In this document: positions 1 to 11,761 of the stretch, piece by piece
How positions within the stretch are numbered: the first letter of the stretch is position 1
Layout of the letters: each line of letters opens with the position of its first letter
Origin: a virus
Lineage: Duplodnaviria > Heunggongvirae > Uroviricota > Caudoviricetes
DNA: 11,761 nt
Virus record (IMG/VR): IMGVR_UViG_2585427768_000001
Location: 1-11,761 of that record
Strand: one strand, 5' to 3'
The notes under the pieces: model-generated
What the model saw: only the letters and a program-made list of their open reading frames with translations
The model's database searches: none
Told to the model about the DNA's origin: nothing
Position numbers and translations under genes: made by a program

Positions 1-2283
1 GCAGGGGATCCCCTGCCGTTCGTATGAACGGCGCAAAATCGTGTTGTCGAAGTTGGCTCCATTTCCCCAGACCTGAACAAAAAATTCACCGGAGTTTTCG
101 TCGATAAATTCCCGCAATTGTAACAGTGCATCATCTAACGGGATTTCATCGGTCATAATGGCAGATTGCGCTTCGCGTGATTGCTTAAGCCACCATTTAA
201 TGGTGTCCCGATCAATGACTCCGCCAGCAGTTTCCAGATCGATAGTCTTACTAAATTCCGGTCCCATATCTCCGGTTTGCGGATCGAAAAATATTGCACC
301 TATTGAGATGATCGGGGCATCAGGATTTTTTCCCATGGTTTCAAGGTCTATCATTAGATGGTCACACGTCCTGCTGGTGGATGTGATTACGTGATGACTG
401 TTCACCTTAATTGAGTGATTTGCCGTCTCGCCAGTTTCATTATCGCTATCGTGATGCTGATTGCCGCCAGTGTTCTCCTTGTGTGGATGTTCAGCGCCTT
501 CCATTTCCTCCGGATCATCTTCCTGAACTTCAACCTGATACTCTTCATCGAATGTTTCCTGGTATGTTGCGTCGCCCATCACCGCGCCACAATCAGGGCA
601 ATTGCCGCCGCCGGTCTGACCGCAGGCGGTGCAGACTTTTTCCACTTCCTGTTGCGCCACTGGTTCAGGCTGTTTCGTTTCTGGCTCGTTTTGTAACGCA
701 TTTGGGCTGTTTTGTTCCGCTTTTTGGTAGTTCCGTTCCGATTCATGCTGGTTCTGGTTTACAGAATCGCGGGTCTGGATCCCCTTAACCCATTTCGGAT
801 CATTCGGGTCGCTAATCCCTGCAACAAATTCTCCGCGAGAGGCAGCAAGCAACTTATCGGCGTCAGGCTGGCTGATATTGGCTGCCTGCATAATTTTGTT
901 TACTTCGTCAGCGGTAACTTTTACCGGCCCTGGTTGTGCGGTCGTGTCAGATGCACCAGTATTTTGTTGTGAACCTGAGTATGTACCGTTTTTGTGGGCG
1001 AAATATTCTTCTTTCGTGATTTCAGTAGCCCCGGCAGCCAGTGCCTTATCCAGACCAGAAAGTTTGTTTGCGCGACCGTATTTTTCGCCATCCTTGTCGG
1101 TGAAGAGGAAGTAGAACGGCCCCTCACGCTCTACAGATGGTTCGACTTCCACTTTGCATTCGGTTTTTTCGTTGTCCGGAATTGCCGTTTCCACTGCATC
1201 AGTTTCTGGTACTGGCGACGAGAGAGTATCAGTTGCGCTCTGATTTCTTCCTTCATCTTCAAACACGCCCTTTGTAGTCAGGTATTCAGTAATGTATTTG
1301 TTCAGTGCCACAGGGTCTTTGTGAATGTCGATCGGACGTTCACGGACAAGGCCAAAAATAGTCTGGCGGTCGTAGCGAAGGGCATCAGGCTGTTTGCGCA
1401 TTGATGCCGAGATACGCTTCCAGTCTTCGCGGTCGTTGTCGATAACTTCATTTTTTGCCCAGCGATGGATGCTGCCGTCAATGTTTCCGGCATCCACATC
1501 ACCAGGCCAGAGAGCGTAGGCCAGTTCGTCATCCAGTGTTTTCCATGTCTGCTTGTATTCGCGATGAATGGCAGCAATGACCAGGCTGATTTTTCCTGTT
1601 GAATTTTCAGTGTGCTGTTGATTGACTCTGGCGCGGGCGAGATCAACAACAGACGTGTATTTTCCGGTTTCCTTGCGTTCACCTTCGCGACGTTTTTTCC
1701 AGATGCGCATCTCTGCCTGAATTTCGGGCCATTTGGCACCAGGCTTACATTTATGCTTAACCCACCCGATGGCATGCAGCTTAAGCTCCGGATACATGGC
1801 GTTAACATCTGGCATTTTCATCAACGCTTCAACGATATGTCCGTCGAATGTTGCCATGTCTTCCTGCAACAATTCCTGTGCGCTAATAACCATATCAACG
1901 GTGATGTTTTCACATGTGTCGAACTTAACCATGACAGCGTTCTGTACTTCAGGGGCCAGCTTGTCAAAAGTGACGTTCATCGGATCGGATTCAGTCTCAA
2001 CCGGGACAAAGGAAGCAGACTCCTCATCCCAGCGGTTTTCCTGCATATATTCAGCATCCCAGGAATCGAGGGCAGGGCGGGGTATACCGGGTTTATCCTC
2101 GCAGACAAGAAATTTATAAGCGCAGTCCTGAGCAGCCGGATAATGTTCCAGGAATTGCCAGTGAAATTTTGCGCGGGCGCGACGTTCATCACCGGCTTCA
2201 ATGGCAGTGGCTACAGCGACGGCACCTTCTTCCTTTATTGCCTGTTCGTCCGGAATGGCGGCGCAAATAAAGACTTTACTCAT
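1..2283 (-). CDS. recE: RecE-like exodeoxyribonuclease VIII family protein, N-terminal 761 codons; C-terminus lies beyond the window start
   Basis: Minus-strand frame is open from the ATG at 2283..2281 (SD GAGG 9 nt upstream on the minus strand) to position 1; I scanned every plus-strand triplet in this frame and found no tta/cta/tca. Absent from the ORF track because no stop lies in the window. Translation begins MSKVFICAAIPDEQ and contains KLLAASRGEFVAGISDPNDPKWVKGIQTRD (recalled as RecE-like), a CxxC-N7-CxxC zinc-ribbon-like motif, an acidic linker, and DEDD-type exonuclease motifs (HLMIDLETMG; NGANFDNTIL). Sits upstream of racC/kilR-position genes as in Rac. Confidence 0.7.
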   Translation of the reverse strand, partial: MSKVFICAAIPDEQAIKEEGAVAVATAIEAGDERRARAKFHWQFLEHYPAAQDCAYKFLVCEDKPGIPRPALDSWDAEYMQENRWDEESASFVPVETESDPMNVTFDKLAPEVQNAVMVKFDTCENITVDMVISAQELLQEDMATFDGHIVEALMKMPDVNAMYPELKLHAIGWVKHKCKPGAKWPEIQAEMRIWKKRREGERKETGKYTSVVDLARARVNQQHTENSTGKISLVIAAIHREYKQTWKTLDDELAYALWPGDVDAGNIDGSIHRWAKNEVIDNDREDWKRISASMRKQPDALRYDRQTIFGLVRERPIDIHKDPVALNKYITEYLTTKGVFEDEGRNQSATDTLSSPVPETDAVETAIPDNEKTECKVEVEPSVEREGPFYFLFTDKDGEKYGRANKLSGLDKALAAGATEITKEEYFAHKNGTYSGSQQNTGASDTTAQPGPVKVTADEVNKIMQAANISQPDADKLLAASRGEFVAGISDPNDPKWVKGIQTRDSVNQNQHESERNYQKAEQNSPNALQNEPETKQPEPVAQQEVEKVCTACGQTGGGNCPDCGAVMGDATYQETFDEEYQVEVQEDDPEEMEGAEHPHKENTGGNQHHDSDNETGETANHSIKVNSHHVITSTSRTCDHLMIDLETMGKNPDAPIISIGAIFFDPQTGDMGPEFSKTIDLETAGGVIDRDTIKWWLKQSREAQSAIMTDEIPLDDALLQLREFIDENSGEFFVQVWGNGANFDNTILRRSYERQGIPC

Positions 2284-2375
2284 TTTGTTTTACCTCATTA
2301 CAGATTTAAGGGTGAACAAATCCCTGCCATTGCTGGCATATAAGAATGAAACCGGATATTTATTACGGAACTGTT

Positions 2376-2567
2376 TTAAAGACCTGCCGGGATTTCGTTA
2401 TTATCCTGGTGAATAACTTTATCGACCGGGTAACAGTTACCGGGAATTTTCTGTTCGGTTGCTGCAGTCACACACTCCTGCATTGTCCTGTGAACACTGA
2501 CTGCAATATCAACTGGCTCTCCGGAAACAAGAAAAACTGTCAGAACAAGTGCAAATGCTGTATTCAT
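2376..2567 (-). CDS. Hypothetical small protein (63 aa) with hydrophobic N-terminal segment; racC/ydaE-position gene
   Basis: ATG at 2567..2565 overlaps the TGA of the upstream gene (ATGA coupling), with AGGA 8 nt upstream. Product MNTAFALVLTVFLVSGEPVDIAVSVHRTMQECVTAATEQKIPGNCYPVDKVIHQDNNEIPAGL. The track's longer 2376..2621 ORF has a poorly spaced SD. Confidence 0.5.
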   Translation of the reverse strand: MNTAFALVLTVFLVSGEPVDIAVSVHRTMQECVTAATEQKIPGNCYPVDKVIHQDNNEIPAGL

Positions 2568-2752
2568 TGCCAGCATCCTTTTTGTATCGGACGTAAACGG
2601 GCCAGCATTGAAAGAATGCATATTTTATTTAATAGCTCCCGTTCGTGTTTTCTCTTGTTAATGGCATCTTCAGTAAATACAGGGTTACTGATATTGACAC
2701 CAATTTCAAAACAACCTTCAGACGTATTAACGTTTGGTAATAACGTTTCCAT
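2564..2752 (-). CDS. Hypothetical small protein (62 aa); kilR-position gene of the leftward early operon
   Basis: ATG at 2752..2750 preceded by GAGGA with 7-8 nt spacing on the minus strand; product METLLPNVNTSEGCFEIGVNISNPVFTEDAINKRKHERELLNKICILSMLARLRPIQKGCWQ; stop overlaps the start of the next gene. Confidence 0.5.
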   Translation of the reverse strand: METLLPNVNTSEGCFEIGVNISNPVFTEDAINKRKHERELLNKICILSMLARLRPIQKGCWQ

Positions 2753-3004
2753 TATCGCGTCCTCAACAATGAATTTTGTGATGCGGTGCCTGGTGCCTCC
2801 AGGTGACGTTAACCAGTTAACAATTAACGCCGGATACAGAGAATCCACCCATAACACTGTTTTTGGTTTTAACTGTTCCGCGTGCGCTCAGCCGCATTCA
2901 CCACATCACAAAATTCACTTTAAAAAGGGCGGCAGAGCAGTCACGGAGTAAAACTGATACCGCCAAACGTCACCAGAAAATTGATAACAGAGGGCGTTGC
3001 AGCG

Positions 3005-3041
3005 GGGTTGTCACTTAAGCGTATGGTCAACCTGACAACCC
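3005..3041. repeat. Perfect inverted repeat, 9-bp arms (GGGTTGTCA / TGACAACCC) with 19-bp spacer, in a 560-bp non-coding gap
   Basis: Read directly from the sequence; no flanking T-run on either strand, so not an intrinsic terminator. Candidate protein-binding site or RNA stem-loop. Confidence 0.5.
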
Positions 3042-3314
3042 GGTGTCCTCAACGGGGGAAGAAATACCCCCGCCATACTTACCGCCGCGCCATTTCGCGG
3101 ATTGCCACAACCGGAAGCGCACGGTCGACGAAAATTTAACGACAGGCTATCTATGAACCAGCTACCTCGCCGTGCGCTTTCGCGTTATGGTCTGACTTTT
3201 CAGGGAAATATCCTTTCAGTAAACTGTCAGTGCCGGATGCTCACCCGTGTCCGGCGCACGCACTCCACCTCACCCGTGGAGAACTCCTTAATCACCAACC
3301 CTCAGGAGGGTGAA

Positions 3315-3590
3315 ATGTCGACTGAAAATGATGAAATCATTAACTCCCTGATACGCCAGATTAATAATTTTGATAAAGCATTGCAACATGCTGCGGCGCG
3401 TAGTGATATAACTCTTTTAGCAATTTCATTTCTTGCATCTGTTATGGATAAAAATGAAGTCGTACGACAGAGTCTTGTTGATTATATCGACTCGCTTCAA
3501 CCCGGCACTTTCAATCATGAGAGCTTCAATCATGAGAAAGAGCATGTTAAGTCTGTAATTAATTCTCTTATTTTGAATCAAAAGAATTAA
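3315..3590 (+). CDS. Hypothetical protein (91 aa), AT-rich gene in sieB position
   Basis: ATG 3315 preceded by AGGAGG 5 nt upstream; in frame with track ORF 3102..3590, whose upstream extension is GC-rich, Arg-rich and has no SD. Product MSTENDEIINSLIRQINNFDKALQHAAARSDITLLAISFLASVMDKNEVVRQSLVDYIDSLQPGTFNHESFNHEKEHVKSVINSLILNQKN. Contains a 15-bp in-frame tandem duplication (3510..3539). Confidence 0.6.
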   Translation: MSTENDEIINSLIRQINNFDKALQHAAARSDITLLAISFLASVMDKNEVVRQSLVDYIDSLQPGTFNHESFNHEKEHVKSVINSLILNQKN

Positions 3591-3900
3591 TGCTTTTTGT
3601 TGCAAAGTAATTTTCAAGGGGTTCTATTCGAATCCCTTTCTTTTTCATTAACAAGCCAAACCCCTTATCAATGATGTCCATTAGATCCAGGAAGTATTTT
3701 TCATGTAAATCCTGGTTATAAGAGAGCTGCTTCTCTTCGTACAGCCCGATAAAGGCTCGGCGTACGTTACCGGATATATTGTCGATGGTTTCTTTTTCTA
3801 CGGTACTCAGGTCAAGAGTCGCCAGTTGAGAGCGAACCACATTCGATGCCATTTCCTGGAATGGGACTGGTAAATCTTTAAATTCCATCGTCAACCTCAT
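3568..3900 (-). CDS. Hypothetical protein (110 aa); second gene of the leftward pL-like early operon
   Basis: Track ORF; ATG 3900..3898 overlaps the TGA of the upstream 77-aa gene (ATGA coupling); alternative start MEFKDLP 12 nt downstream. The 3' end overlaps the convergent 91-aa gene by 23 bp. Confidence 0.55.
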   Translation of the reverse strand: MRLTMEFKDLPVPFQEMASNVVRSQLATLDLSTVEKETIDNISGNVRRAFIGLYEEKQLSYNQDLHEKYFLDLMDIIDKGFGLLMKKKGIRIEPLENYFATKSINSFDSK

Positions 3901-4133
3901 CAGTCAGTGTTTCTGGTTAACCAGCGACGTGCGCCAGCTTCAGTTTTAAACGTTTTGCTTCTGGTATATGTCATCGCGGTAAACGTGCCGTCCTGGTTGG
4001 GAAACACGCCGCATACCAGAGATTCGTTGTTGCCAAGCTCGATAGTATCCATGCTGACCTCATTTCCCCTTAACGCCGGGGTAGCGGAACAAAAACCTGC
4101 TGCATAGTTATTAAAGTTGAACCCTGCCGTCAT
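3900..4133 (-). CDS. Hypothetical protein (77 aa); first gene downstream of the leftward pL-like promoter (ydaG/ydaF position)
   Basis: Track ORF; ATG 4133..4131 with GAGG 9 nt upstream on the minus strand; product MTAGFNFNNYAAGFCSATPALRGNEVSMDTIELGNNESLVCGVFPNQDGTFTAMTYTRSKTFKTEAGARRWLTRNTD. Confidence 0.5.
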   Translation of the reverse strand: MTAGFNFNNYAAGFCSATPALRGNEVSMDTIELGNNESLVCGVFPNQDGTFTAMTYTRSKTFKTEAGARRWLTRNTD

Positions 4134-4232
4134 GTTCTTACGCCTCGGGCTGGCTACTTAACCCCTGACCACTGCCTGGTAACTCGAGGTATTGCCCTGT
4201 ATTGTGTGGGACGGGATGGGTTGGTATGGGAA

Positions 4233-4276
4233 AACTATAGGAAATGCCTAATTACTTGTCAATAGGCTATGCCTAA
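4233..4276 (-). promoter_or_regulatory. Leftward pL-like sigma70 promoter with operator palindrome (OL-like)
   Basis: On the minus strand: -35 TTGACA (4262..4257), 17-nt spacer, -10 TATAGT (4239..4234). Palindrome TAGGCTATGCCTA at 4263..4275 and GCCTA half-site at 4246..4250. Segment 4255..4276 is the exact reverse complement of 4899..4920 on the other side of racR. Confidence 0.6.
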
Positions 4277-4370
4277 TAATTTGGGCGCAACCTAATAGGT
4301 GATGGTTTGTGGGAGAGGTAGTAGGAGTTAACTAACGGGAACTAGGAATTTCCCGTCGGACCATATAAGT

Positions 4371-4847
4371 TTAAGTTCCTGTCTTGGTGATGTTCTGGCT
4401 TTTCCGTTTTGATTCTTGATTTTTCAGATAGTTAGCTACCTTCATTTCCATTGCGGCAATGTAGGCGCGAACGTCATGATCAACCCAACTAGGCTCCGTA
4501 GCATTTCCAGATAAGATGAAAGCCACAATTGCTCTTTTTTCATCAGAGGCGGCTTGATAAAGGCTGTTTATGTCTAAAAGTTCACTTTTTGTATCTGAAG
4601 TGGATGGGGTTGGTATGGGGTATTCGTTAAGCCCCCAATGCTCTGGACCAACCACATCAGAAAAGAAACGCCATAGTTCTGGAAGTTTGTCTTTACTTAT
4701 CGAACCTTTCTTAATCCAGTCATGGATTGATGGTGGTTGGACTTTGAAATGACGTGCGATTTCCGCCTTTGATTTGACGGCTCCTGATGCAATTTTTTTG
4801 TTAATGGCCTGCTCTATCGCTCGGCCTAAGTCTTTACCACTAAGCAT
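4371..4847 (-). CDS. racR: Prophage repressor, RacR-like (158 aa, HTH)
   Basis: Track ORF MLSGKDLGRAIEQAINKK...; HTH-like segment KSKAEIARHFKVQPPSIHDWIKKG; divergent from the ydaS/ydaT-like genes, flanked by operator repeats. Size and organisation match Rac racR from memory, not verified by search. Confidence 0.7.
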   Translation of the reverse strand: MLSGKDLGRAIEQAINKKIASGAVKSKAEIARHFKVQPPSIHDWIKKGSISKDKLPELWRFFSDVVGPEHWGLNEYPIPTPSTSDTKSELLDINSLYQAASDEKRAIVAFILSGNATEPSWVDHDVRAYIAAMEMKVANYLKNQESKRKSQNITKTGT

Positions 4848-4898
4848 TGCTTAATAGTCTCCTATGCGCATCGCGTTAGGCAATCCCTACTCTCGATG

Positions 4899-4944
4899 TA
4901 TTAGGCATAGCCTATTGACAATTTCATTAGGCTAAGCCTAATAT
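4899..4944 (+). promoter_or_regulatory. Rightward pR-like sigma70 promoter with two operator palindromes (OR-like)
   Basis: -35 TTGACA 4915..4920, 18-nt spacer, -10 TAATAT 4939..4944. Palindromes TAGGCATAGCCTA (4902..4914) and TAGGCTAAGCCTA (4928..4940), centres 26 bp apart, overlapping the -35 and spacer. Confidence 0.6.
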
Positions 4945-4971
4945 TGTTGCGTGTTTTTTGGAGTTCATTCG

Positions 4972-5295
4972 ATGAAAAAAGATAACTATTCATTCAAACG
5001 AGCTTGTGCTGTTGTCGGTGGGCAATCAGCAATGGCTAGGCTTTTAGGTGTATCTCCTCCAAGCGTAAATCAATGGATCAAAGGTGTACGTCAGTTACCT
5101 GCTGAGAGATGTCCTGCGATTGAACGAGCAACAAAAGGTGGTGTCCTGTGTGAAGAACTTCGTCCTGATGTTGATTGGACATACTTACGACGCTCGTCAT
5201 GTTATTCGCAGAATATGTCGATGAAGCAACCAAATGACGAAAACGATCATACCCGAAGCATCAAGAGGCAAATGATTCATGAAAATCAAACATGA
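4972..5295 (+). CDS. ydaS: Cro/YdaS-like HTH protein (107 aa)
   Basis: ATG 4972 with GGAG 8 nt upstream; in frame with track ORF 4951..5295. Product MKKDNYSFKRACAVVGGQSAMARLLGVSPPSVNQWIKGVRQLPAERCPAIERATKGG... has the YdaS/Cro-like HTH pattern; first gene from the pR-like promoter. Confidence 0.7.
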   Translation: MKKDNYSFKRACAVVGGQSAMARLLGVSPPSVNQWIKGVRQLPAERCPAIERATKGGVLCEELRPDVDWTYLRRSSCYSQNMSMKQPNDENDHTRSIKRQMIHENQT

Positions 5296-5704
5296 GCACA
5301 TCCGCATGGCGATGAATGCCTGGGCATACCCTGATGGTGAGAAAGTTCCTGCAGCTGAAATAGCCCGGACTTATTTCGAACTGGGGATGACGTTCCCTGA
5401 ACTGTACGACGACAGCCATCCGGAAGCCCTGGCCCGTAATACCCAGAAAATTTTCCGTTGGCTGGATAAAGACACCCCTGATGCTGTTGAAAAAATGCAG
5501 GCTCTGTTACCGGCGATCGAAAAGGCGATGCCGCCTTTGCTGGTGGCCCGTATGCGCAGCCACAGTTCTGAATATTACCGTGAGATCGTCGAACGGAGGG
5601 ATCGGCTGGGGAAGGATGTCGATGATTTTGTTGCGTCAGCGGTTGTTTTGTATGACCAGATGAATCGCGGCGGCCCGGCAGGGAATGCTGTGGTGATGCA
5701 CTAA
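5279..5704 (+). CDS. ydaT: YdaT-like protein (141 aa)
   Basis: Track ORF MKIKHEHIRMAMNAWAYPDGEKVPAAEIARTYFELGMTFPELYDD...; overlaps the 3' end of the ydaS-like gene by 17 nt; position and size match Rac ydaT. Confidence 0.65.
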   Translation: MKIKHEHIRMAMNAWAYPDGEKVPAAEIARTYFELGMTFPELYDDSHPEALARNTQKIFRWLDKDTPDAVEKMQALLPAIEKAMPPLLVARMRSHSSEYYREIVERRDRLGKDVDDFVASAVVLYDQMNRGGPAGNAVVMH

Positions 5705-5726
5705 AAGCACGGTGTTCGGGGGTTTT

Positions 5727-6689
5727 ATGAGCAGCAAGCTTCATGGTCTTGTCTGGGAAGGGTGCGCCTTCACCGGCATGATCTTATCCAGGGTGGCGGT
5801 TATGGCCCGTCTTGCAGACTACAGCAATGACGAGGGCGTGTCATGGCCTGCCATTGAAACTATCCGGCGTCAGATCGGTGCAAGAAGTGAATCCACAGTG
5901 AAATCGGCTATTGCAGAACTGGCGAAAGAGGGCTGGCTGACGAAGGAAGAGCGTAAGGTCGGTGGGCGTAATGTAAGCAATATCTATCGGCTTAATGTGG
6001 AAAAACTCGAAGCAGCTGCGGCGGCGGCGCGTGAGTCATATAAACCGAAAAGAAAAATTAGCCCGGCAAAAAATGACCCGTTAACAGTTGACCCGTCAAA
6101 TATTGACCCCTCAACGGTTGACCCGTCAAATTTTGATGGATCAACTGTTGATAAAAAACTGCCGATTAGGGGGGCGATGATTAACCCCGATCCGTCAGTA
6201 TTAAAACCTGATCCGTCAGATAAAAGATCTTCTTGTCCGGACGCTTCGCAACCGGACCCGCAGACGGCTGAACAGGATTTTTTAACCCGACACCCTGACG
6301 CGGTTGTGTTCAGTGCGAAAAAACGCCAGTGGGGAAGTCAGGAAGATTTGGTGTGCGCACAGTGGATCTGGGGACGAATCGTGAGTCTTTACGAGCAGGC
6401 GGCCAGCGATGATGGCGAGATCACTAGACCGAAAGAACCCAACTGGACAGCATGGGCCAATGACGTTCGCACAATGCGGATGCTGGATGGCAGAACTCAC
6501 AGACAAATTTGTGAAATGTTTGGGCGTCTCCAGCGGGATTCGTTCTGGGTAAAAAACATCATGAGTCCGGCAAAACTCCGGGAAAAATGGGATGAACTGG
6601 TTATCCGCCTGGGGCGTTCGCCTGCGCAGCGTTGCGTGAATCACATTTCTGAACCGGACACTGAAATTCCGCCGGGCTTCAGGGGGTAA
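5727..6689 (+). CDS. Phage replication initiator, O-like (N-terminal winged-helix DNA-binding domain), about 320 aa
   Basis: ATG 5727 with GGGGG 4 nt upstream (track uses GTG 5712). N-terminus MSSKLHGLVWEGCAFTGMILSRVAVMARLADYSNDEGVSWPAIETIRRQIGARSESTVKSAIAELAKEGWL resembles phage replication-initiator HTH domains. A DPS-repeat linker coincides with DNA-level iterons, as in lambda O. Confidence 0.65.
   Translation: MSSKLHGLVWEGCAFTGMILSRVAVMARLADYSNDEGVSWPAIETIRRQIGARSESTVKSAIAELAKEGWLTKEERKVGGRNVSNIYRLNVEKLEAAAAAARESYKPKRKISPAKNDPLTVDPSNIDPSTVDPSNFDGSTVDKKLPIRGAMINPDPSVLKPDPSDKRSSCPDASQPDPQTAEQDFLTRHPDAVVFSAKKRQWGSQEDLVCAQWIWGRIVSLYEQAASDDGEITRPKEPNWTAWANDVRTMRMLDGRTHRQICEMFGRLQRDSFWVKNIMSPAKLREKWDELVIRLGRSPAQRCVNHISEPDTEIPPGFRG
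6073..6148. repeat. Five tandem 15-bp-spaced iterons (core TTGAC-N2-GTCAA), putative prophage ori
   Basis: ATGACCCGTTAA (6073), TTGACCCGTCAA (6088), TTGACCCCTCAA (6103), TTGACCCGTCAA (6118), TTGATGGATCAA (6133), then an A-rich tract ATAAAAAA (6149..6158) and two more GATCCGTCAG copies (6189, 6211). Confidence 0.6.
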
Positions 6690-6729
6690 GTGTTAATTTC
6701 TGGTCATGAGGTAATTTTCAGGAGGGCTT

Positions 6730-7152
6730 GTGGCAAAAGTTTTTACACAAGAAGAGCGGGAAAAAATTAAAGGGCAGGTTGTTGAACTCGTACGCCAGAG
6801 TGGGCGCGAGACGTTACGACAACTGGAAACTAAAACTGGGGCAACAAGATATCTGATGAGCGTTCTGGCCAGAGAGCTGGTTGCCAGTGGCGATGTATAC
6901 AACTCTGGTTACGGGTTATTCCCGTCTGAACAGGCGCGTAAGGACTGGCAAAATGCCCGTAAAAAGCTCTCAAGGGCAAAGCTGAAGAAACCATCTGCGG
7001 TTGATCCGGACCTTATCTGGTCATTACCTGACGGAGAAATACGTCGCTACGACAGGCGTCAGAACATAATCTGTCGCGAGTGCCGGAAGAGCGAAGTTAT
7101 GCAGCGCATATTGTCGTTTTATCAGGGTAATTTTCAGAAGGTGCTGTTGTGA
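6730..7152 (+). CDS. Hypothetical protein (140 aa) downstream of the O-like initiator; no Walker A motif
   Basis: GTG 6730 preceded by AGGAGGG 3 nt upstream; product MAKVFTQEEREKIKGQVVELVRQSGRETLRQLETKTGATRYLMSVLARELVASGDVYNSGYG..., with CxxC near the C-terminus (CRECRK). Confidence 0.6.
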   Translation: MAKVFTQEEREKIKGQVVELVRQSGRETLRQLETKTGATRYLMSVLARELVASGDVYNSGYGLFPSEQARKDWQNARKKLSRAKLKKPSAVDPDLIWSLPDGEIRRYDRRQNIICRECRKSEVMQRILSFYQGNFQKVLL

Positions 7153-7257
7153 GCCAAATTAACAATCGGAACTTCGTGAAGAGAAAGCATAATCCAAATC
7201 TGAATAATTAAGTTCAGCACTGTAAATAAAATTTAATCCTTAACTGGAGGTATATCT

Positions 7258-7470
7258 ATGTCAAATACACAGAAAATTATTAACACTGAAAAATATAACG
7301 AGTGGGTGAAAAAATTCTCTGAACAGATTTTTAAAATTACTGGCGACGAGAATGTGGCAAAAAATGAATTAGAACCGTGGACACCTGAAGGAAACGCACC
7401 AAATTATTGCTGGTGGGAAGTTGATCCGGTTGATGCTGCAAATGAAGCCATGAGTTACCACAACGATTAA
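7258..7470 (+). CDS. Hypothetical small protein (70 aa), AT-rich accessory gene
   Basis: ATG 7258 with GGAGG 7 nt upstream; product MSNTQKIINTEKYNEWVKKFSEQIFKITGDENVAKNELEPWTPEGNAPNYCWWEVDPVDAANEAMSYHND. Confidence 0.6.
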   Translation: MSNTQKIINTEKYNEWVKKFSEQIFKITGDENVAKNELEPWTPEGNAPNYCWWEVDPVDAANEAMSYHND

Positions 7471-7479
7471 TGTCGGGAG

Positions 7480-7497
7480 GCCGCCCGAAAGGGCGGT
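7480..7497 (+). other. Stem-loop with GAAA tetraloop (CCGCCC-GAAA-GGGCGG) between an SD-like GGGAGG and the next start codon
   Basis: Read from sequence at 7481..7496; GGGAGG at 7475..7480; next ATG at 7503; no T-run after the stem. Confidence 0.5.
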
Positions 7498-7502
7498 AAG
7501 AA

Positions 7503-7721
7503 ATGACTACATTATTCAGAAAAGAATATCCGCAAAAAAGTAGAGCGACAGAATTTTTGTTTCTCATTCTGTTTATCGTATTGATGATACCGATATCCCC
7601 TCTAATTTTTGTCTGGGCAATCGGGAAAATAATTGAGCCAGTTACTGAATTGTATACCGACGTTGTATGGGCGTCGTTCAACACACTGCACAATAAAATT
7701 AATCCGTATAAGGAAAACTGA
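7503..7721 (+). CDS. Hypothetical single-pass membrane protein (72 aa)
   Basis: Track ORF; hydrophobic stretch FLFLILFIVLMIPISPLIFVWAIG; stop TGA 7719..7721 lies 1 nt before the next ATG. Confidence 0.55.
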   Translation: MTTLFRKEYPQKSRATEFLFLILFIVLMIPISPLIFVWAIGKIIEPVTELYTDVVWASFNTLHNKINPYKEN

Positions 7722-7722
7722 T

Positions 7723-7986
7723 ATGGCAACTTTGACAAAAAAAGAACGGGCATGGTTGAACGAATTACAGGAAGTTCTTGATCGCTGTCCATCACCGAAA
7801 AAAATTGGCTTTTACACCATTGGCGATAAAAGCATTTACCTGTATGACCTACGCCGCATGGATGAAATCATGGAGGCTCTTGATAATCGTTCGTCGATGG
7901 ATTGGTGTGTTGCTGTTCATGATATGAATGCAGGGTTTGATGAAAAGATTTTGTTCCCCTCATCAGTTGAAAGCACTGCGGGTTAA
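7723..7986 (+). CDS. Hypothetical protein (87 aa)
   Basis: ATG 7723 with AGGA 8 nt upstream; in frame with track ORF 7633..7986; product MATLTKKERAWLNELQEVLDRCPSPKKIGFYTIGDKSIYLYDLRRMDEIMEALDNRSSMDWCVAVHDMNAGFDEKILFPSSVESTAG. Confidence 0.6.
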   Translation: MATLTKKERAWLNELQEVLDRCPSPKKIGFYTIGDKSIYLYDLRRMDEIMEALDNRSSMDWCVAVHDMNAGFDEKILFPSSVESTAG

Positions 7987-7996
7987 GGAGTAACAC

Positions 7997-8164
7997 ATGA
8001 CCACTATTACCAAAGAACGTATTGAATTGTTCATTAAAAACCCGCTTGAAAACGGGCTTACCCGTGGTGAACAAATGGAACTGGCACGGATTGCGCTGGC
8101 ATCGCTGGAAGCAGAGCCGGTTGTGTTCTGGTTTGAAAAATATCAAGAAGGGGCTACGGCATGA
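7997..8164 (+). CDS. Hypothetical small protein (55 aa), short paralogue of the downstream 114-aa protein
   Basis: Below the track's 60-aa limit; found by hand. ATG 7997 with AAGGAG 6 nt upstream; product [55 protein letters not shown]; stop TGA 8162..8164 overlaps the next ATG (ATGA). Confidence 0.5.
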
Positions 8165-8505
8165 CGACTTTTACCAGAGAGCAGTTAATAGCTCACGCAG
8201 AGGAGACTATTGAAGCACAGAGACTGTGCATACCGGGCACAATCGACCATGACATCATCCGCACATATAAGATGGATATTGCTGTTCTGGAAATCGCACT
8301 GGTATCGCTGGCAGCAGAGCCAGCCGGTAAATTGCATGAATACAAACCAGTGGGATATCAGCGTCTGGTCGATGAGTTAACCATGCTGGTAAAGCAGTTA
8401 ACCTGGCAACTGAGGAAAGCGAAGCCAGACTGCAAATTACCGGATAAGGCGATGAGTTATCTGGAGCGGAACGGACTGATAAGCGTGGAGGATATTTTAC
8501 GATGA
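8161..8505 (+). CDS. Hypothetical protein (114 aa), paralogue of the upstream 55-aa protein
   Basis: Track ORF; shares the N-terminal MTTxT(K/R)E and the motif I-A-L-x-S-L-x-A-E-P with the 55-aa protein; DNA-level similarity about 80% over about 25 nt (8093..8119 vs 8304..8330). Confidence 0.6.
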
Positions 8506-8585
8506 CCTGGCCTGAAGCATTAACAACGGTAGGAATTGCGATGGCGGTGGCGCTGGTGGTGTATTCGATTTGCCGCTGGGGATAA
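8502..8585 (+). CDS. Possible hydrophobic micropeptide (27 aa), translationally coupled to the 114-aa gene
   Basis: ATG 8502 overlaps the upstream TGA (ATGA); product [27 protein letters not shown]; no strong SD; too short to judge from sequence alone. Confidence 0.3.
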
Positions 8586-8796
8586 AAACGGTTTGCGGGA
8601 AAAGGAGAGTTAAGTAGAATTGCAGCGGGTGCTTGAGGCTATCTGTCTCAGGCATGAACACCAAAAGGCAGATAGAGAAAAGCCCCAGTTAACATTACGC
8701 GTCCGGCAAGACGCTTAACATTAATCTGAGGCCATATCTATGCTCTACACACGTAGGTTAGCCTCTTACGTGCCGAAAGGCAAGGAGAAGCAGGCT

Positions 8797-8952
8797 ATGA
8801 AGCAGCAAAAGGCGATGCTAATCGCCCTGATCGTCATCTGTTTAACCGTCATTGTGACGGCACTGGTAACGAGGAAAGACCTCTGCGAGGTACGAATCCG
8901 AACCGGCCAGACGGAGGTCGCTGTCTTCACAGCTTACGAACCTGAGGAGTAA
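8797..8952 (+). CDS. hok: Hok/Gef-family type I toxin (51 aa), HokD/RelF-like
   Basis: Product MKQQKAMLIALIVICLTVIVTALVTRKDLCEVRIRTGQTEVAVFTAYEPEE matches the Hok family signature; AAGGAG 9 nt upstream of ATG 8797. An in-frame upstream ATG at 8740 with its own GAGG SD gives the track's 70-aa form. Confidence 0.85.
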   Translation: MKQQKAMLIALIVICLTVIVTALVTRKDLCEVRIRTGQTEVAVFTAYEPEE

Positions 8953-9020
8953 GAGACCTGGCGGGGGAGAAATCCCTCGCCACCTCTGATGTGTCAGGCA
9001 TCCTCAACGCACCCGCACTT

Positions 9021-9049
9021 AACCCGCTTCGGCGGGTTTTGTTCTTTTT
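9021..9049 (+). terminator. Rho-independent terminator after hok
   Basis: AACCCGC-TTCG-GCGGG followed by TTTTGTTCTTTTT; GC stem, tetraloop and T-run read directly. Confidence 0.7.
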
Positions 9050-9196
9050 GTGAAAAAAATTCCCTTAAAGGAGATTTTTTTAACTAAAAAGGTTTACTTT
9101 GCTTTCGTATATGGTAAATTTTAGGAATTAGAATTTAAGCGCCCATCAGGCTTGCGTTAGGCAAGTCTGCTAAATCAACAAATTGAGGATAAAATC

Positions 9197-9556
9197 ATGG
9201 CACTCACTGAATTCGGTAAGGCCGTTAGAAAAGCGAGGATCGATACTGACAGTACTCTTCTGACTATGTCTCAAGAACTGGGCACTACGCCAGCGTTTCT
9301 TAGCGGTTTAGAAACTGGTAGCAAAAAAATACCTCTGAAGTGGGTTAAGAAGATTGATTCTTACTTCAAGGCCAAAGGTGTAGAAATTGAAGGGTTACAG
9401 GAGCTAGCGGCAGTTGCGAATGACTCAGTTCCAGTAAACGGTTTGTCTCAGCAACAGAAAATGCTTGTAGCGGGATTCGCTAAGTCGCAGTTTACGCCGG
9501 AACAGCTAAAGAGTTTTGCAGATTTATTGCAAAAGATTAATAACAATGAGGGGTAA
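9197..9556 (+). CDS. XRE-family helix-turn-helix transcriptional regulator (119 aa)
   Basis: ATG 9197 with GAGG 8 nt upstream; N-terminal HTH_3-like segment LTEFGKAVRKARIDTDSTLLTMSQELGTTPAFLSGLETG followed by an extension of about 60 aa. Confidence 0.75.
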   Translation: MALTEFGKAVRKARIDTDSTLLTMSQELGTTPAFLSGLETGSKKIPLKWVKKIDSYFKAKGVEIEGLQELAAVANDSVPVNGLSQQQKMLVAGFAKSQFTPEQLKSFADLLQKINNNEG

Positions 9557-9558
9557 TT

Positions 9559-10035
9559 ATGTATCAAATGAGAGGTAACAGGGTGTCACCGATGCAAGAA
9601 GAAGAAATAGCCTACAGAGCTATAAACTTCTGTAATGCTATTGGTCTTACAGCCTCAAAGCGCAAAAGAAAGCGTTATGATATGTTCTTTGAAAGCCTGT
9701 CAATTTATGGGGTTACTCTTGACGTCAGGACCGACAAAGAGTGGGAGGCTCTGACGTATGATCTAACTATCGGACATTGTGACCCCGCTTCTCTAACAAT
9801 TACGGTTCCCAATAAAATATATGTGAATGCTTGCCTTGGGGAAGAGCATGCACTTGCTGTTATCTTCCACGAGCTAGGTCATTTGCTTCTTGGACACAAA
9901 GCAGTTTTACACTTTTCAGTTAAAGAACCTACTCGTATTGAGGATGCAGAATGGCAGGCAGATACATTTGCGGATATCGTACTGGAAACAATTGGCGTGA
10001 GAACACAACAGATGTCGTTCGATTTTTATATGTAA
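9559..10035 (+). CDS. ImmA/IrrE-family zinc metallopeptidase (158 aa; HExxH)
   Basis: ATG 9559 is 2 nt after the HTH gene stop, with GAGGGG 5 nt upstream; HExxH motif in HELGHLLLGH plus a downstream E/D-rich segment, typical of the ImmA/IrrE family. Confidence 0.75.
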   Translation: MYQMRGNRVSPMQEEEIAYRAINFCNAIGLTASKRKRKRYDMFFESLSIYGVTLDVRTDKEWEALTYDLTIGHCDPASLTITVPNKIYVNACLGEEHALAVIFHELGHLLLGHKAVLHFSVKEPTRIEDAEWQADTFADIVLETIGVRTQQMSFDFYM

Positions 10036-10036
10036 A

Positions 10037-10060
10037 AGCCCTGCGCTAACAGGGCTTTTA
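10037..10060 (+). terminator. Probable intrinsic terminator after the peptidase gene
   Basis: AGCCCTG-CGCTAA-CAGGGCT followed by TTTTA; the T-run is short. Confidence 0.5.
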
Positions 10061-10164
10061 GGGACGGAAAGTGCGCTAACACATTCCGTAGTGTATGGAG
10101 ATAATCCAATCACAACACTTTTTGTAGACAAGCGAAGTGTAGTGGTTCTCCCAACAAAGTGCAA

Positions 10165-10182
10165 CCTGTGTGGATTCACAGG
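10165..10182. promoter_or_regulatory. Inverted repeat CCTGTG-N6-CACAGG upstream of the Cys-rich ORF; candidate operator
   Basis: Perfect 6-bp arms read directly; lies 21 nt upstream of ATG 10203. Confidence 0.35.
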
Positions 10183-10202
10183 TGAGCAGGGAAAACGAAA
10201 TC

Positions 10203-10352
10203 ATGGCAATGGGTACCTGTCGCAAATGTGGCTGTCCATGTGAGATCATTTTTCGCTACTCTGTGTGTGTAGATGGTGTAATGCGCCACGCGAAAAAAGG
10301 GAAGCCTTTCCCGATCCCACTTTGCAGTTGTAGTGGCAAGCACGCAGCTTGA
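10203..10352 (+). CDS. Cys-rich mini-protein (49 aa; 7 Cys), putative metal-binding
   Basis: ATG 10203 with AGGGAA 9-10 nt upstream; product MAMGTCRKCGCPCEIIFRYSVCVDGVMRHAKKGKPFPIPLCSCSGKHAA; the track's 60-aa form starts at GTG 10170 inside the inverted repeat. Confidence 0.45.
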   Translation: MAMGTCRKCGCPCEIIFRYSVCVDGVMRHAKKGKPFPIPLCSCSGKHAA

Positions 10353-10366
10353 TATTCAGTACTGAC

Positions 10367-10398
10367 AAAACCCGCTTCGGCGGGGTTTGTTTTTTTTT
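10367..10398 (+). terminator. Rho-independent terminator after the Cys-rich ORF; core identical to the hok terminator
   Basis: AAAACCCGC-TTCG-GCGGGGTTT followed by GTTTTTTTTT; the 16-nt AACCCGCTTCGGCGGG is identical to 9021..9036. Confidence 0.7.
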
Positions 10399-10467
10399 GG
10401 CATTCAGGTTTACAATTCGCACGTCAGCCTGAACAACTGGCACCTGCTGCGCCAGCAGAGAAAGACG

Positions 10468-10746
10468 ATGGCGCACAATACCAAATCACACAATTCTGAT
10501 AATTCAGCTGTCTTTGCCAGCAGGCACGGGCGGCGTTCCCGCACATTCAAATCTGATTGGTACCAGCATCCCCCATGTACTGAAGAACAAGCTGAATGGC
10601 TAATTCAGTGCTACCGCAGACACGGATACGAGATTAAGAAAGCCCTCAGCCTCGATTATCGTCACTGGATAATCTCCGTCAGGCTTCCTTACTCTGAACG
10701 CCCACCGCGTCCGTCCCGCACATTCCAGCAACGCATCTGGAGGTAA
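10468..10746 (+). CDS. Hypothetical protein (92 aa), rem-position gene
   Basis: In frame with track ORF 10387..10746 (which starts in the terminator T-run); ATG 10468 with a weak GAGAAAG SD; product MAHNTKSHNSDNSAVFASRHGRRSRTFKSDWYQHPPCTEEQAEWLIQCYRRHGYEIKK... Confidence 0.45.
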   Translation: MAHNTKSHNSDNSAVFASRHGRRSRTFKSDWYQHPPCTEEQAEWLIQCYRRHGYEIKKALSLDYRHWIISVRLPYSERPPRPSRTFQQRIWR

Positions 10747-10747
10747 C

Positions 10748-11291
10748 GTGCGGGTATTACTTCGACCTGTTCTGGTACCGGAACTCGGGCTGGTGATCGT
10801 TAAGCCGGGCCGTGAATCCATGCCGGTATTCCACAATACCCGGGTACTGGTGGAGCCGGAACCGAAAAGCATGCGTAATCTGTCGTCCGGGGTCGTTCCT
10901 GCCGTTCGCCAGCCGCTGGCGGAGGATAAATCATTACTGCCATTTTTCAGCGACGAACGAGTGATTCGTGCTGCTGGTGGCGCTGGCGCATTGTCTGACT
11001 GGTTACTGCGCCATGTTAAATCCTGCCAGTGGCCACACGGCGATTATCACCACAGTGAAACCGTCATTCACCGTTATGGTACCGGCGCAATGGTGTTGTG
11101 CTGGCACTGCGACAACCAGCTGCGCGACCAGACCTCCGAATCACTCGGGCAACTTGCTCACCAAAACCTGTCTGCATGGATGATTGACGTCATACGCCAT
11201 GCAATGAATGGCTCGCAGGAACGGGAATTATCGCTGGCTGAATTATCCTGGTGGGCGGTCCGCAATCAGGTGGCGGACGCGCTACCGGAAG
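10748..11291 (+). pseudogene. DUF968-like (YdfU-like) Cys/His-rich protein gene, 3' part removed by IS insertion
   Basis: GTG 10748 with GGAGG 4 nt upstream, overlapping the upstream stop; Cys/His motif CQWPHGDYHH...CWHCDNQ; the frame runs into the IS terminal repeat at 11292, so the track ORF tail after ...ADALPEV is IS-derived. Confidence 0.55.

Positions 11292-11761
<470 letters not shown>

Follow-up and report, generated by a model that had tools for sequence, protein, structure and literature searches.

In the concept of Hendrix and Juhala, a moron is an extra gene with its own promoter and terminator that lies between genes adjacent in related phages. One familiar extra gene of lambdoid phages, sieB, encodes a membrane protein with hydrophobic segments. 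On the RNA side, repZ of the IncI-alpha/IncB plasmids and the ROSE and fourU thermometers are leaders that gate the ribosome-binding site (RBS) through loop-to-RBS pseudoknots or through helices formed by an anti-Shine-Dalgarno (anti-SD) element. Here, we analyze an 11,761-nucleotide (nt) stretch of DNA, positions 1 to 11,761 of IMG/VR virus record IMGVR_UViG_2585427768_000001 (here, the window), which is an Escherichia coli lambdoid prophage of the Rac/Qin type. On the plus strand, within a leftward early operon, it carries a 91-amino-acid (aa) open reading frame (ORF) behind a structured leader.

Two described systems stand closest to this locus. In T4-type phages, promoter-early stem-loop (PeSL) cassettes are short promoter-plus-stem-loop motifs that flank small ORFans in variable regions, occur in several copies per genome, and provide homologous anchors for modular shuffling (PMC2839356, PMC4122927). 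The long untranslated region of the dicBF operon in the K-12 prophage Qin has been treated only as the minus-strand precursor of the small RNA DicF, and the opposite strand has been given neither a function nor a structure nor a transcript (PMC5069750, PMC10448788).

Our analysis indicates that the notable unit at this locus is the leader and not any single gene; it is a widespread, unannotated structured cassette and marks a hotspot at which small ORFans are exchanged. The reading that we favor, at a probability of roughly 0.6, is that the 91-aa ORF is a lineage-restricted moron cassette, placed antisense in the early-left operon, with a portable leader that would gate translation.

Two conserved hairpins and their distribution in E. 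coli

A sequence-only reading of the window had described two adjacent stem-loops ahead of the 91-aa ORF, both presenting the same 10-nt motif, and both are there. Hairpin H1 (3230 to 3257, plus strand) has an 11-bp stem, 3230-3240 with 3247-3257, around the loop UCACCC (3241-3246); in its core GCCGGA (3232-3237) pairs with TCCGGC (3250-3255), and the extended plus-strand stem includes three G.U pairs. Hairpin H2 (3263 to 3281, plus strand) has a 6-bp CUCCAC/GUGGAG stem (CTCCAC at 3263-3268, GTGGAG at 3276-3281) and the loop CUCACCC; the end first given for it, 3282, was one base too far. A further stem, H0, lies upstream of H1, at 3190-3205. The motif itself, CTCACCCGTG, occurs exactly at 3240-3249 and 3269-3278, and with one mismatch or fewer it has four matches in the window where 0.56 is expected, a count reached by none of 200 shuffles. 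The 66-nt plus-strand fold has an energy of -29.2 kcal/mol (z = -4.3), and 0 of 200 shuffles are as stable. No U tract follows H1 or H2, and the Rfam 15 covariance models (E <= 1) give no match at 3190-3320.

The hairpins are conserved among homologous leaders. Across 42 unique sequences of the class that includes the window (class I), H1 is 98% paired and H0, H1, and H2 together are 96% paired, which 0 of 500 shuffles reach, and RNAalifold recovers both H1 and H2. Within class I these two hairpins are nearly invariant, so that the informative comparisons are those between classes. Class II leaders, present in 972 genomes, keep the same architecture with a different H1 loop, H2 sequence, and pre-AUG spacer.

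The sequence-only reading had treated the hairpins as the leader of this one gene. They are real, but they are not specific to it: the 81-nt H1-H2 element of class I is found in 3122 of 5426 complete E. coli genomes, and the 91-aa ORF in 198. The element occupies 4287 places, up to five per genome, with at least 95% identity in nearly all copies, and no feature is annotated at these copies in any of the RefSeq rows listed. The Qin prophage of K-12 keeps H1 and H2 without any plus-strand ORF.

Exact-pattern scans of viral contigs and phage records show that the leader, the Shine-Dalgarno (SD) sequence, and the position of the start codon are shared by many different ORFs, which we call cargos. 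We collected 44 unique leaders and 25 N-terminal cargo variants, which by our grouping fall into about 13 families of 57 to 112 aa. Several of these match PHROGs annotated "unknown," and family scans of the other cargos returned only a sub-threshold GhoS-like match (E = 1.2e-3). The mosaic junctions are sharp; one falls at the left base of H1, the other just ahead of the SD.

The cassette is not confined to dicF loci, as 30 of 192 unique contexts are without the dicF spacer. In phage phiSTEC1589 (phiSTEC1589-Stx1c; positions 1508-1900 of our locus L371, about 14.4 to 14.8 kb of the record), a second leader copy lies in the replication/nin region with no DicF nearby, antisense to its neighbors. 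This copy has the H1 loop UUACCC, a 9-bp H2, and a weakened SD, GAAGGA, and is followed by an unannotated 96-aa ORF (MDKKLNQARW...). Related elements are present in phiP27 and in Stx phages of the O104:H4 type. Judged by these contexts, the leader is a cassette that is not tied to dicF.

Two further arrangements were seen at H1. The O104:H4 phage P13374 (locus L369, 1800-1930) carries a deleted remnant of the phiSTEC1589 96-aa cargo behind its H1 element. At two other loci (L065, 2014-2445, and L018, 379-810), a 143-aa plus-strand ORF with CPxC...CPxC zinc-ribbon motifs lies directly to the left of H1, where it replaces H0 and the -10 region; H1 and H2 then fall in its 3' untranslated region, and ydfC is the next gene on the opposite strand. 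Insertion of cargo is thus possible to the left as well as to the right of H1-H2.

Covariation between the leader and the ribosome-binding site

Between H2 and the start codon lies an RBS module (3284 to 3314, plus strand), in which the anti-SD element CUCCU (3284-3288) is complementary to AGGAG (3304-3308) within the SD sequence AGGAGG (3304-3309). Both the H1 loop (3241-3246) and the H2 loop find their complement in the plus-strand hexamer GGGUGA (3308-3313), which overlaps the SD. The leader variant of the window has a third UCACC, at 3292-3296, which the minimum-free-energy fold pairs with GGUGA.

Every class has the anti-RBS hexamer once, in its H1 loop, and class I repeats it in the loop of H2. 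The six spacer bases to which the H1 loop is complementary stop one to two bases short of the start codon, and loop and spacer change together. Loop and spacer read UCACCC and GGGUGA in class I, UUACCC and GGGUAA, an intermediate state, in Salmonella and one E. coli type, and UUAUCC and GGAUAA in class II. Across 37 unique leaders, this loop-RBS helix is 96% paired over the five pairs counted, and two of its pairs (13-89 and 15-87 in alignment A6) switch from C-G to U-A in 16 to 21 of the 37. The anti-SD:SD helix (55-61 with 79-85 in the same alignment) is 92% paired; here the element CUCC(U/A)U that follows H2 pairs with (A/U)GGAG, and two pairs flip between classes, one from U-A to A-U and the other from A-U to U-A.

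The two helices taken as one have an overall covariation of 0.179, compared with 0.081 in shuffles (0/500) and at most 0.076 in slid controls, with duplex energies of -8.7 and -5.3 kcal/mol. In class II and two further variants, the position of H2 holds a 9-bp hairpin with a one-base bulge and a quite different sequence that is nevertheless 93.5% paired. Five of the nine pairs of the class II H2 have changed on both sides (score of 0.342 versus 0.100 in shuffles, 0/500; slid controls at most 0.087). Taken together, this covariation supports H1, H2, the anti-SD:SD helix, and the pairing of the H1 loop with the spacer as elements of the leader RNA. A temperature series from 25 to 42 C showed no melting trend in SD pairing.

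These comparisons alter the standing of the 10-nt motif, which had been put forward as a feature displayed twice. Its simplest reading is now the anti-RBS hexamer, given that the H1 loop covaries with the six bases before the AUG, and the motif need not be a protein-binding site.

Other roles for the leader were considered and discarded. Pairing of DicF with the loops could involve only 5 bp, and this complementarity is lost in the class II loops. An N-utilization or put-like antitermination site on the leftward RNA was dropped, the minus-strand fold being unremarkable, and the boxA-like CUCCUUAA is better explained as an anti-SD element.

The 91-aa ORF as one cargo of the cassette

The 91-aa ORF, the cargo of the cassette in the window, runs on the plus strand from an ATG at 3315 to a TAA at 3588-3590. 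We have good confidence that it is a genuine gene, because comparative sequence analysis gives it a frame-specific dN/dS near 0.3, homologs of the same length, and a strong SD. When the window allele is compared with one that differs from it by 15% in DNA, the annotated frame has a dN/dS of 0.28 to 0.31 and the other five frames have values of 0.44 to 1.62. The frame stays open in the 15%-diverged alleles and in equal-length homologs that are only 26 to 32% identical; these homologs, from a profile search, form a family of 92 to 93 aa found in E. coli and Salmonella, and R29, D31, L34, S38, R51, I58, and N67 are invariant across the 91-aa ORF and this family. The SD ahead of the ORF is a perfect AGGAGG. 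The Salmonella homolog has the same position and plus orientation, and it overlaps a convergent small ORF by 41 bp. The ORF is without a counterpart in the collinear K-12 Qin prophage and in phage 640R1, and the module that flanks it is present in more than 3000 genomes.

The description of this ORF as a lone, AT-rich rightward gene at the sieB position, neither SieB-like nor membrane-like, holds in all its parts. It is the sole plus-strand gene in the leftward operon and, according to the RefSeq annotation of a 99.7% identical prophage adjoining ompW in strain E7476 (query, window 2900-3950), the sole plus-strand gene from int to racR. Its GC content is 0.357 over 3301-3600, compared with roughly 0.41 to 0.56 in most other stretches of the window. 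Its place is that of sieB in Rac, which in the window means between DicF/dicB and the small genes next to the repressor. No SieB match was found for its product in Pfam, PHROG, or PADLOC, and a maximum Kyte-Doolittle value of 1.43 over 19-residue windows indicates no transmembrane segment.

RefSeq annotates this gene differently. Its model (WP_001351093.1, from the PGAP pipeline) has 145 aa and starts at an ATG at 3153, so that the N-terminal 54 residues are translated leader hairpins. In 19 of 37 unique leaders an in-frame stop lies between H1 and the SD-proximal start, and because of these stops the 145-aa model is, on the sequence evidence, an artifact. In other copies the H2 loop reads CTGACCC instead of CTCACCC, and this one-base difference creates a stop in the 145-aa frame. 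More generally, an upstream ORF or leader peptide, whether in the form of the 145-aa model or of an SD-ATG in locus L122, was rejected on account of poor spacing and of the in-frame stops in 19 of 37 leaders. That SD-ATG lies about 60 nt upstream of H0 in L122 and L171, in the variable loop of an RNase III stem discussed below, where AAAGGGAGGAATG is SD-like with an ATG 1 nt away; its frame ends at a TGA just before the cargo ATG and is probably not functional.

Within the coding sequence, an in-frame 15-bp tandem unit (FNHES/FNHEK) is present in two copies at 3510 to 3537 on the plus strand, with TTCAATCATGAGA at 3510-3522 and 3525-3537 and a period of 15. The sequence-only reading had recognized this perfect 13-bp direct repeat and had attributed it to recent slippage. 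The repeat is as described; a recent origin does not fit, since a 79% identical allele also has two units, which differ from each other by one codon (FNPES/FNHEK). Among alleles of the gene, one, two, and three copies were found: alleles of 86 aa have one unit (L003, from ABU 83972, and L235), the great majority of 91 aa have two, and one of 96 aa (L234) has three. In the fetched loci these changes are always in frame. The distance from N67 to H77 in the 26 to 32% identical family is that of the two-unit form. Because the 79% identical variant has two units and the distant homologs match the two-unit length, the comparison indicates that the two-unit state is ancestral and that the one-unit and three-unit alleles are rare derivatives. 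By the same sequence comparison, the repeat is a small in-frame variable-number tandem repeat that slips both ways.

At its 3' end the 91-aa ORF meets a convergent 110-aa ORF (3568-3900, minus strand; 106 aa from 3888 in the RefSeq model). The two overlap by 23 bp (3568-3590), as the sequence-only reading had noted in suggesting antisense interference. This overlap is not special to the gene, since every cargo ORF examined at the locus overlaps the convergent ORF, by 11 to 68 bp; it is a by-product, because the leftward ORF continues into the cassette, whichever one is there, as far as the first stop. An antisense interaction is plausible over the whole transcript rather than over the 23 bp alone. 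The convergent ORFs are themselves mosaic, with either a conserved N-domain (MEFKDLP...GLYEEK) or a "ELKHIIALLLEDAK" domain, and with tails that change with the cassette. In the 110-aa ORF, phrog_6937 and three other PHROGs match the N-terminal 55 to 65 residues only, and the same convergent body is paired with unrelated plus-strand cargos, with a different tail each time. Convergent ORFs of this family in the window and at loci L005, L007, L096, and L101 have 106 to 187 aa and join an N-domain of about 60 aa (phrog_6937, 1363, 2151, and 9419) to unrelated C-terminal parts. A specific pair of plus-strand protein and convergent C terminus, in the style of toxin and immunity, was rejected in view of the occurrence of the same convergent body with different cargos; in addition, related cargos lie beside different convergent ORFs.

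Searches with the 91-aa protein returned little. Pfam gave no family at E <= 0.01, SieB included, and PHROG, PADLOC, and a PDB sequence search gave nothing significant, the best non-significant value being E = 0.014 for BrxA. A phmmer search of 1.84 billion representatives recovered six members of its own family, truncated or internally deleted, and a 1168-aa protein with weak similarity (E = 6e-5). Two AlphaFold2 models show three to four helices with a pLDDT of 65 to 67, and Foldseek found no fold match for them in the PDB (best E = 0.78). The protein is an orphan, acidic, and predicted to be helical and soluble. Most likely it acts as a small binder in the cytoplasm, expressed while the prophage is repressed; that it serves in conflict between phages or between phage and host is our guess. 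The cargo is hydrophilic, and in this it differs from the small hydrophobic toxin of a type I toxin-antitoxin system of the hok/sok kind.

Transcription signals around the cassette

A promoter-like site, read by eye, spans 3197 to 3225 on the plus strand. It consists of a -35 hexamer TTTTCA (3197-3202), a 17-nt spacer, and a -10 hexamer TAAACT (3220-3225). At 8 of 12 consensus positions the match is weak; the predicted start falls at about 3230-3232, the base of H1. Other loci, with unrelated upstream sequence, have a -10-like hexamer equally far from H1. In phiP27 the site reads TTGAGA-17-GATAAT (10/12) and in locus L248 TTAATA-17-TAAAAT (9/12), both of which pass the promoter scan, and TAAGCT stands at this offset in phi367, P13374, and Salmonella. 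In K-12, RNA-seq has antisense reads over ydfC but not over dicF or dicB. The site at 3197-3225 is a candidate promoter of the cassette.

Behind the ORF, a hairpin resembling an intrinsic terminator spans 3616 to 3646 on the plus strand and consists of AAGGGGTTC-TATTC-GAATCCCTT followed by TCTTTTTCAT, with 9 pairs. It lies 26 nt past the stop codon, within the KKKGIRIEPL codons of the convergent gene, and its U tract is on the plus strand only, where alone it would be expected to act. The hairpin is kept behind a diverged allele of the ORF and also where another cargo faces this convergent gene, and consensus matching finds similar sites behind about half of the other cargos.

How the cassette might work

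According to the reading that we favor, about a dozen unrelated small-protein cargos of 57 to 112 aa use the same leader of about 85 nt. A sigma-70 -10 element just upstream would cause the plus-strand transcript to start with H1, and H1 and H2 form, as their conservation and covariation show. The anti-SD element CUCCU would hold AGGAG, and the H1 loop UCACCC would hold GGGUGA between the SD and the AUG. This pairing, to which the covariation points, would gate or repress translation, and the one-directional terminator inside the convergent gene would end the transcript. The near-invariant leader would also serve as a homologous anchor at which cargos are swapped or lost, which may be why most copies, including that of K-12 Qin, keep H1-H2 without the ORF. 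Even without cargo, such a leader probably gives rise to a short antisense RNA that runs across ydfC.

Several observations weigh against this interpretation. The promoter scan found nothing on the plus strand between 2979 and 3314, the best candidate read by eye (8/12) falling below its threshold. In a pseudoknot-free partition function the SD has an unpaired probability of 0.29 compared with 0.20 in shuffles, so that it is not less accessible than in shuffled sequence. The covariation mostly separates two or three leader classes, which amounts to few independent events with possible part-linkage in a mosaic region. Six leaders have a single mismatch in the loop-RBS helix; in each it is C.A on the plus strand and would be G.U on the minus strand, so that the helix is 100% paired on the minus strand and, at the two positions concerned, 89 to 95% paired on the plus strand. 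The leader moreover lies within the known long untranslated region of the dicBF transcript, beside an RNase III site, and its conservation may partly serve the minus-strand RNA. Finally, the family, fold, and defense-system searches gave no clue to the function of the 91-aa protein.

Competing explanations for the leader

One possibility is that the main product of the leader is a cis-antisense RNA, with the ORF as an optional passenger, that keeps down leaky expression of the toxic dicF, dicB, and ydfD genes in the lysogen, whether by loop-loop kissing, by duplex formation and RNase III cleavage, or by collision of polymerases. Antisense RNAs typically have stable hairpins whose loops are exposed. 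The spread of the leader is about 16 times that of the ORF, the leader is kept where there is no ORF at all, and the convergent geometry is the same for all cargos. RNA-seq of wild-type K-12 gives antisense values of 7.2 reads per million (RPM) for ydfC, 0.08 for dicF, 0.08 for dicB, and 0.34 for ydfB, and sense values of 3.1, 6.6, 3.3, and 5.3, respectively (Huang et al., PMC7373196, Table S1c); antisense reads thus exceed sense reads in ydfC, where p19-captured, RNase III-dependent double-stranded RNA is also higher than in the neighboring genes (PMC7373196). Such values would be expected of an antisense transcript starting in the interval that holds H1, between dicF and ydfC; the counts are low, at a few RPM, and map no start site. 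Against an antisense RNA as the main product, the well-placed SD and the loop-RBS covariation argue for selection on translation of the cargo, and no terminator is evident after H2 in the K-12 arrangement. We regard this account as tentative, and it does not exclude the translation-gating cassette, with which it is compatible.

Alternatively, the hairpins could work in the minus-strand dicBF RNA, in processing or stability, for example as protectors of the 3' end of the ydfA-side fragment after the RNase III cut, and the plus-strand ORFs would merely use the block as a recombination anchor and a borrowed 5' untranslated region. The location within the untranslated region upstream of dicF, the retention of the element in cargo-less Qin, and the loop-RBS mismatches that would be G.U on the minus strand all suit this view. 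A long-range inverted repeat of 13 bp, 3112-3124 with 3170-3182, is 92% complementary around a variable 45-nt loop and shows one compensatory change, G-C to A-U, in L122 and L171. We infer that it is the RNase III site yielding the 190-nt DicF species, with a 5' end near 3116, and the coincidence of that end with the stem, like the destabilization of the upstream mRNA when RNase III is lost, is what a role in the minus-strand RNA would predict.

The pattern of substitution points to the other strand. The wobble pairs of H1 form in 38 to 42 of 42 sequences on the plus strand and in 0 to 6 on the minus strand. As we read the tables for single pairs, about seven class I sites in H0, H1, and H2 have a one-sided transition that leaves a G.U pair on the plus strand, compared with one or two on the minus strand; most such changes keep pairing only on the plus strand. 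For the class II H2, eight cells are G.U on the plus strand and two or three on the minus strand. The minus-strand fold of the leader (z = -0.6) does not go beyond shuffles, and consensus folding energies favor the plus strand in class II (-32.2 versus -22.9) and class I (-26.2 versus -23.5). Among cargo-bearing loci, an SD and an ORF always follow the leader directly on the plus strand, with or without a dicF context, and away from dicF the cassette is antisense to a different operon. A helix over the RBS of a plus-strand gene, moreover, has an obvious role only in plus-strand RNA. A plus-strand function of the leader is thus the more likely one, and a purely minus-strand explanation is unlikely; a minus-strand role, or an interaction of both RNAs, is possible.

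A more elaborate proposal, which we consider quite doubtful, makes the leader a mobile riboregulatory platform with a dual output, an antisense RNA that kisses the hairpins of the early transcript and a clamp on the RBS of the cargo. The antisense RNA would set the level of toxic DicF and DicB through RNase III, in K-12 Qin as elsewhere. The loop, when free, would clamp the RBS, and translation of the cargo would be coupled, inversely or directly, to the activity of the early operon.

An unexpressed frame that is open only by chance, in AT-rich filler, is a very unlikely account of the 91-aa ORF. The lack of any family, fold, or defense-system match, the low-confidence structure model, and the weak local promoter are what such a frame would give. 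The frame-specific dN/dS near 0.3, the strong SD, and the 15-bp copy-number changes, which are always in frame, speak against it, as does a frame that remains open, with conserved residues, down to homologs of 26 to 32% identity.

Least credible is an action of the inverted repeats as DNA, either as operators for a dimeric regulator or as an integron-like capture site. The direct-repeat core common to both repeats and the sharp junctions, which coincide exactly with the left base of H1 and with the point just ahead of the SD, would suit such an action. Hard to reconcile with it are the G.U-type variation and compensatory changes, which fit RNA pairing, and an H2 that keeps its geometry while its sequence changes completely, as is unexpected for an operator. 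No recombinase is associated with the cassette, and its right-hand boundary has no matching sequence that would make a recombination site pair, for which reason we rejected integron-like capture.

The prophage setting and other features of the window

The leftward genes around the 91-aa ORF are a dicBF-type operon. On the minus strand, the order is racR (4371-4847), a sigma-70 promoter with an 11/12 match (4262-4234), the ydfA/DUF1391 gene (3900-4133), the 110-aa ORF, a noncoding spacer, full-length DicF (2927-2978; Rfam RF00039, 76.7 bits, E = 6.6e-16), dicB (2564-2752), a ydfD-like DUF1482 gene (2376-2567), and the exonuclease VIII gene. The leader sits in the spacer directly upstream of DicF in the minus-strand sense. 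The window from 2900 to 3300 is 97.8% identical to K-12 Qin between ydfC and dicB. This homology ends at about 3300, directly ahead of the SD; beyond the break, the next feature in Qin is the 3' end of ydfC on the opposite strand, with no plus-strand ORF.

An Rfam 15 scan of the whole window at E <= 1 matched only sok, DicF, STnc100, isrK, and mir-250. The STnc100 match (2720-2929, minus strand) is sub-threshold at 38.7 bits, the gathering score being 47, and covers the 5' region of dicB just downstream of DicF. A type I toxin-antitoxin copy of the hok/sok type lies at 8627-8802 and 8740-8952 on the plus strand (sok RF01794, 117 bits; Hok/Gef ORF, Pfam E = 2.9e-23), and a weak isrK-like match of 27 bits, under its gathering score, follows the hok/sok copy at 8961-9042. 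Two adjacent plus-strand ORFs come next, one of 119 aa (9197-9556), annotated as a helix-turn-helix protein in E7476, and one of 158 aa (9559-10035) with a Peptidase_M78/IrrE (ImmA-like) domain and an HELGH motif; together they resemble an XRE/ImmA-type regulator pair of the nin region. The right end of the window holds a fragment with an IS3-family transposase (rve integrase core; 11334-11744, minus strand). At the equivalent point E7476 has IS1A, and the prophage is broken there.

Significance and comparison with known systems

Although K-12, Stx phages, and the phage family of the O104:H4 outbreak all carry the leader, Rfam has no entry for it and the RefSeq rows examined leave it unannotated. 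From its sequence, it may gate, or at least contact, the RBS of its cargo, and it may give rise to an antisense RNA beside dicF and dicB. If the leader is indeed both a translation-gating 5' untranslated region and a recombination anchor, it would be a new and easily searched marker of a lambdoid-prophage hotspot for small ORFan "conflict" genes and a counterpart, in these prophages, of the T4 shuffling cassettes, with a possible unrecognized antisense transcript next to the much-studied dicF and dicB genes. A recurrent misannotation, in which a 145-aa ORF swallows the leader, is corrected as well.

In its place on the map, the 91-aa gene is most like sieB of lambda, P22, and Rac, which is also a lone opposite-strand gene in the leftward early operon at a syntenic position. 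In Rac, sieB lies between kil and the repressor-proximal genes; the 91-aa gene lies between DicF/dicB and ydfA/racR. By analogy with sieB, it is presumably expressed from the repressed prophage. The likeness goes no further, as its product has no sequence similarity to SieB, no membrane segment, and about half the size of Rac SieB, which we take to have 162 aa, and, unlike sieB, the gene is one of several interchangeable cargos behind a common leader.

The 91-aa gene itself is an ordinary small moron. Like the morons of other lambdoid phages, it is present or absent between collinear prophages, is AT rich, and has a promoter-like site before it and a terminator-like hairpin after it. Classical morons carry their own control signals, whereas here unrelated morons share a near-identical structured 5' untranslated region and RBS, and the cargos of this cassette sit antisense to the host operon.

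As a structure over an RBS, the leader resembles those of repZ and of the ROSE and fourU thermometers in having a loop complementary to bases beside the SD and a CUCCU-SD pairing, both of which covary here. It differs from them in having no leader peptide and no thermometer consensus and in being absent from Rfam. With respect to the dicBF untranslated region of Qin, the window from 2900 to 3300 is the same DNA, and DicF and the RNase III stem are present in both.

The comparison with the PeSL cassettes is the closest in terms of organization. Like them, the lambdoid leader is a conserved, repeated unit, with up to five copies per genome, that stands beside ORFans at variable sites and marks recombination junctions. 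The phage groups are unrelated, and the two elements have no sequence relationship. The stem-loops of PeSL cassettes terminate the upstream gene, whereas H1 and H2 are without a U tract and lie in a 5' untranslated region; even where the 143-aa ORF precedes H1, no terminator consensus is found at H1 or H2. The lambdoid leader, unlike PeSL, carries elements that pair with the RBS. By analogy, then, the nearest described counterpart in concept of the leader reported here would be the PeSL cassette of the T4-type phages (PMC2839356).

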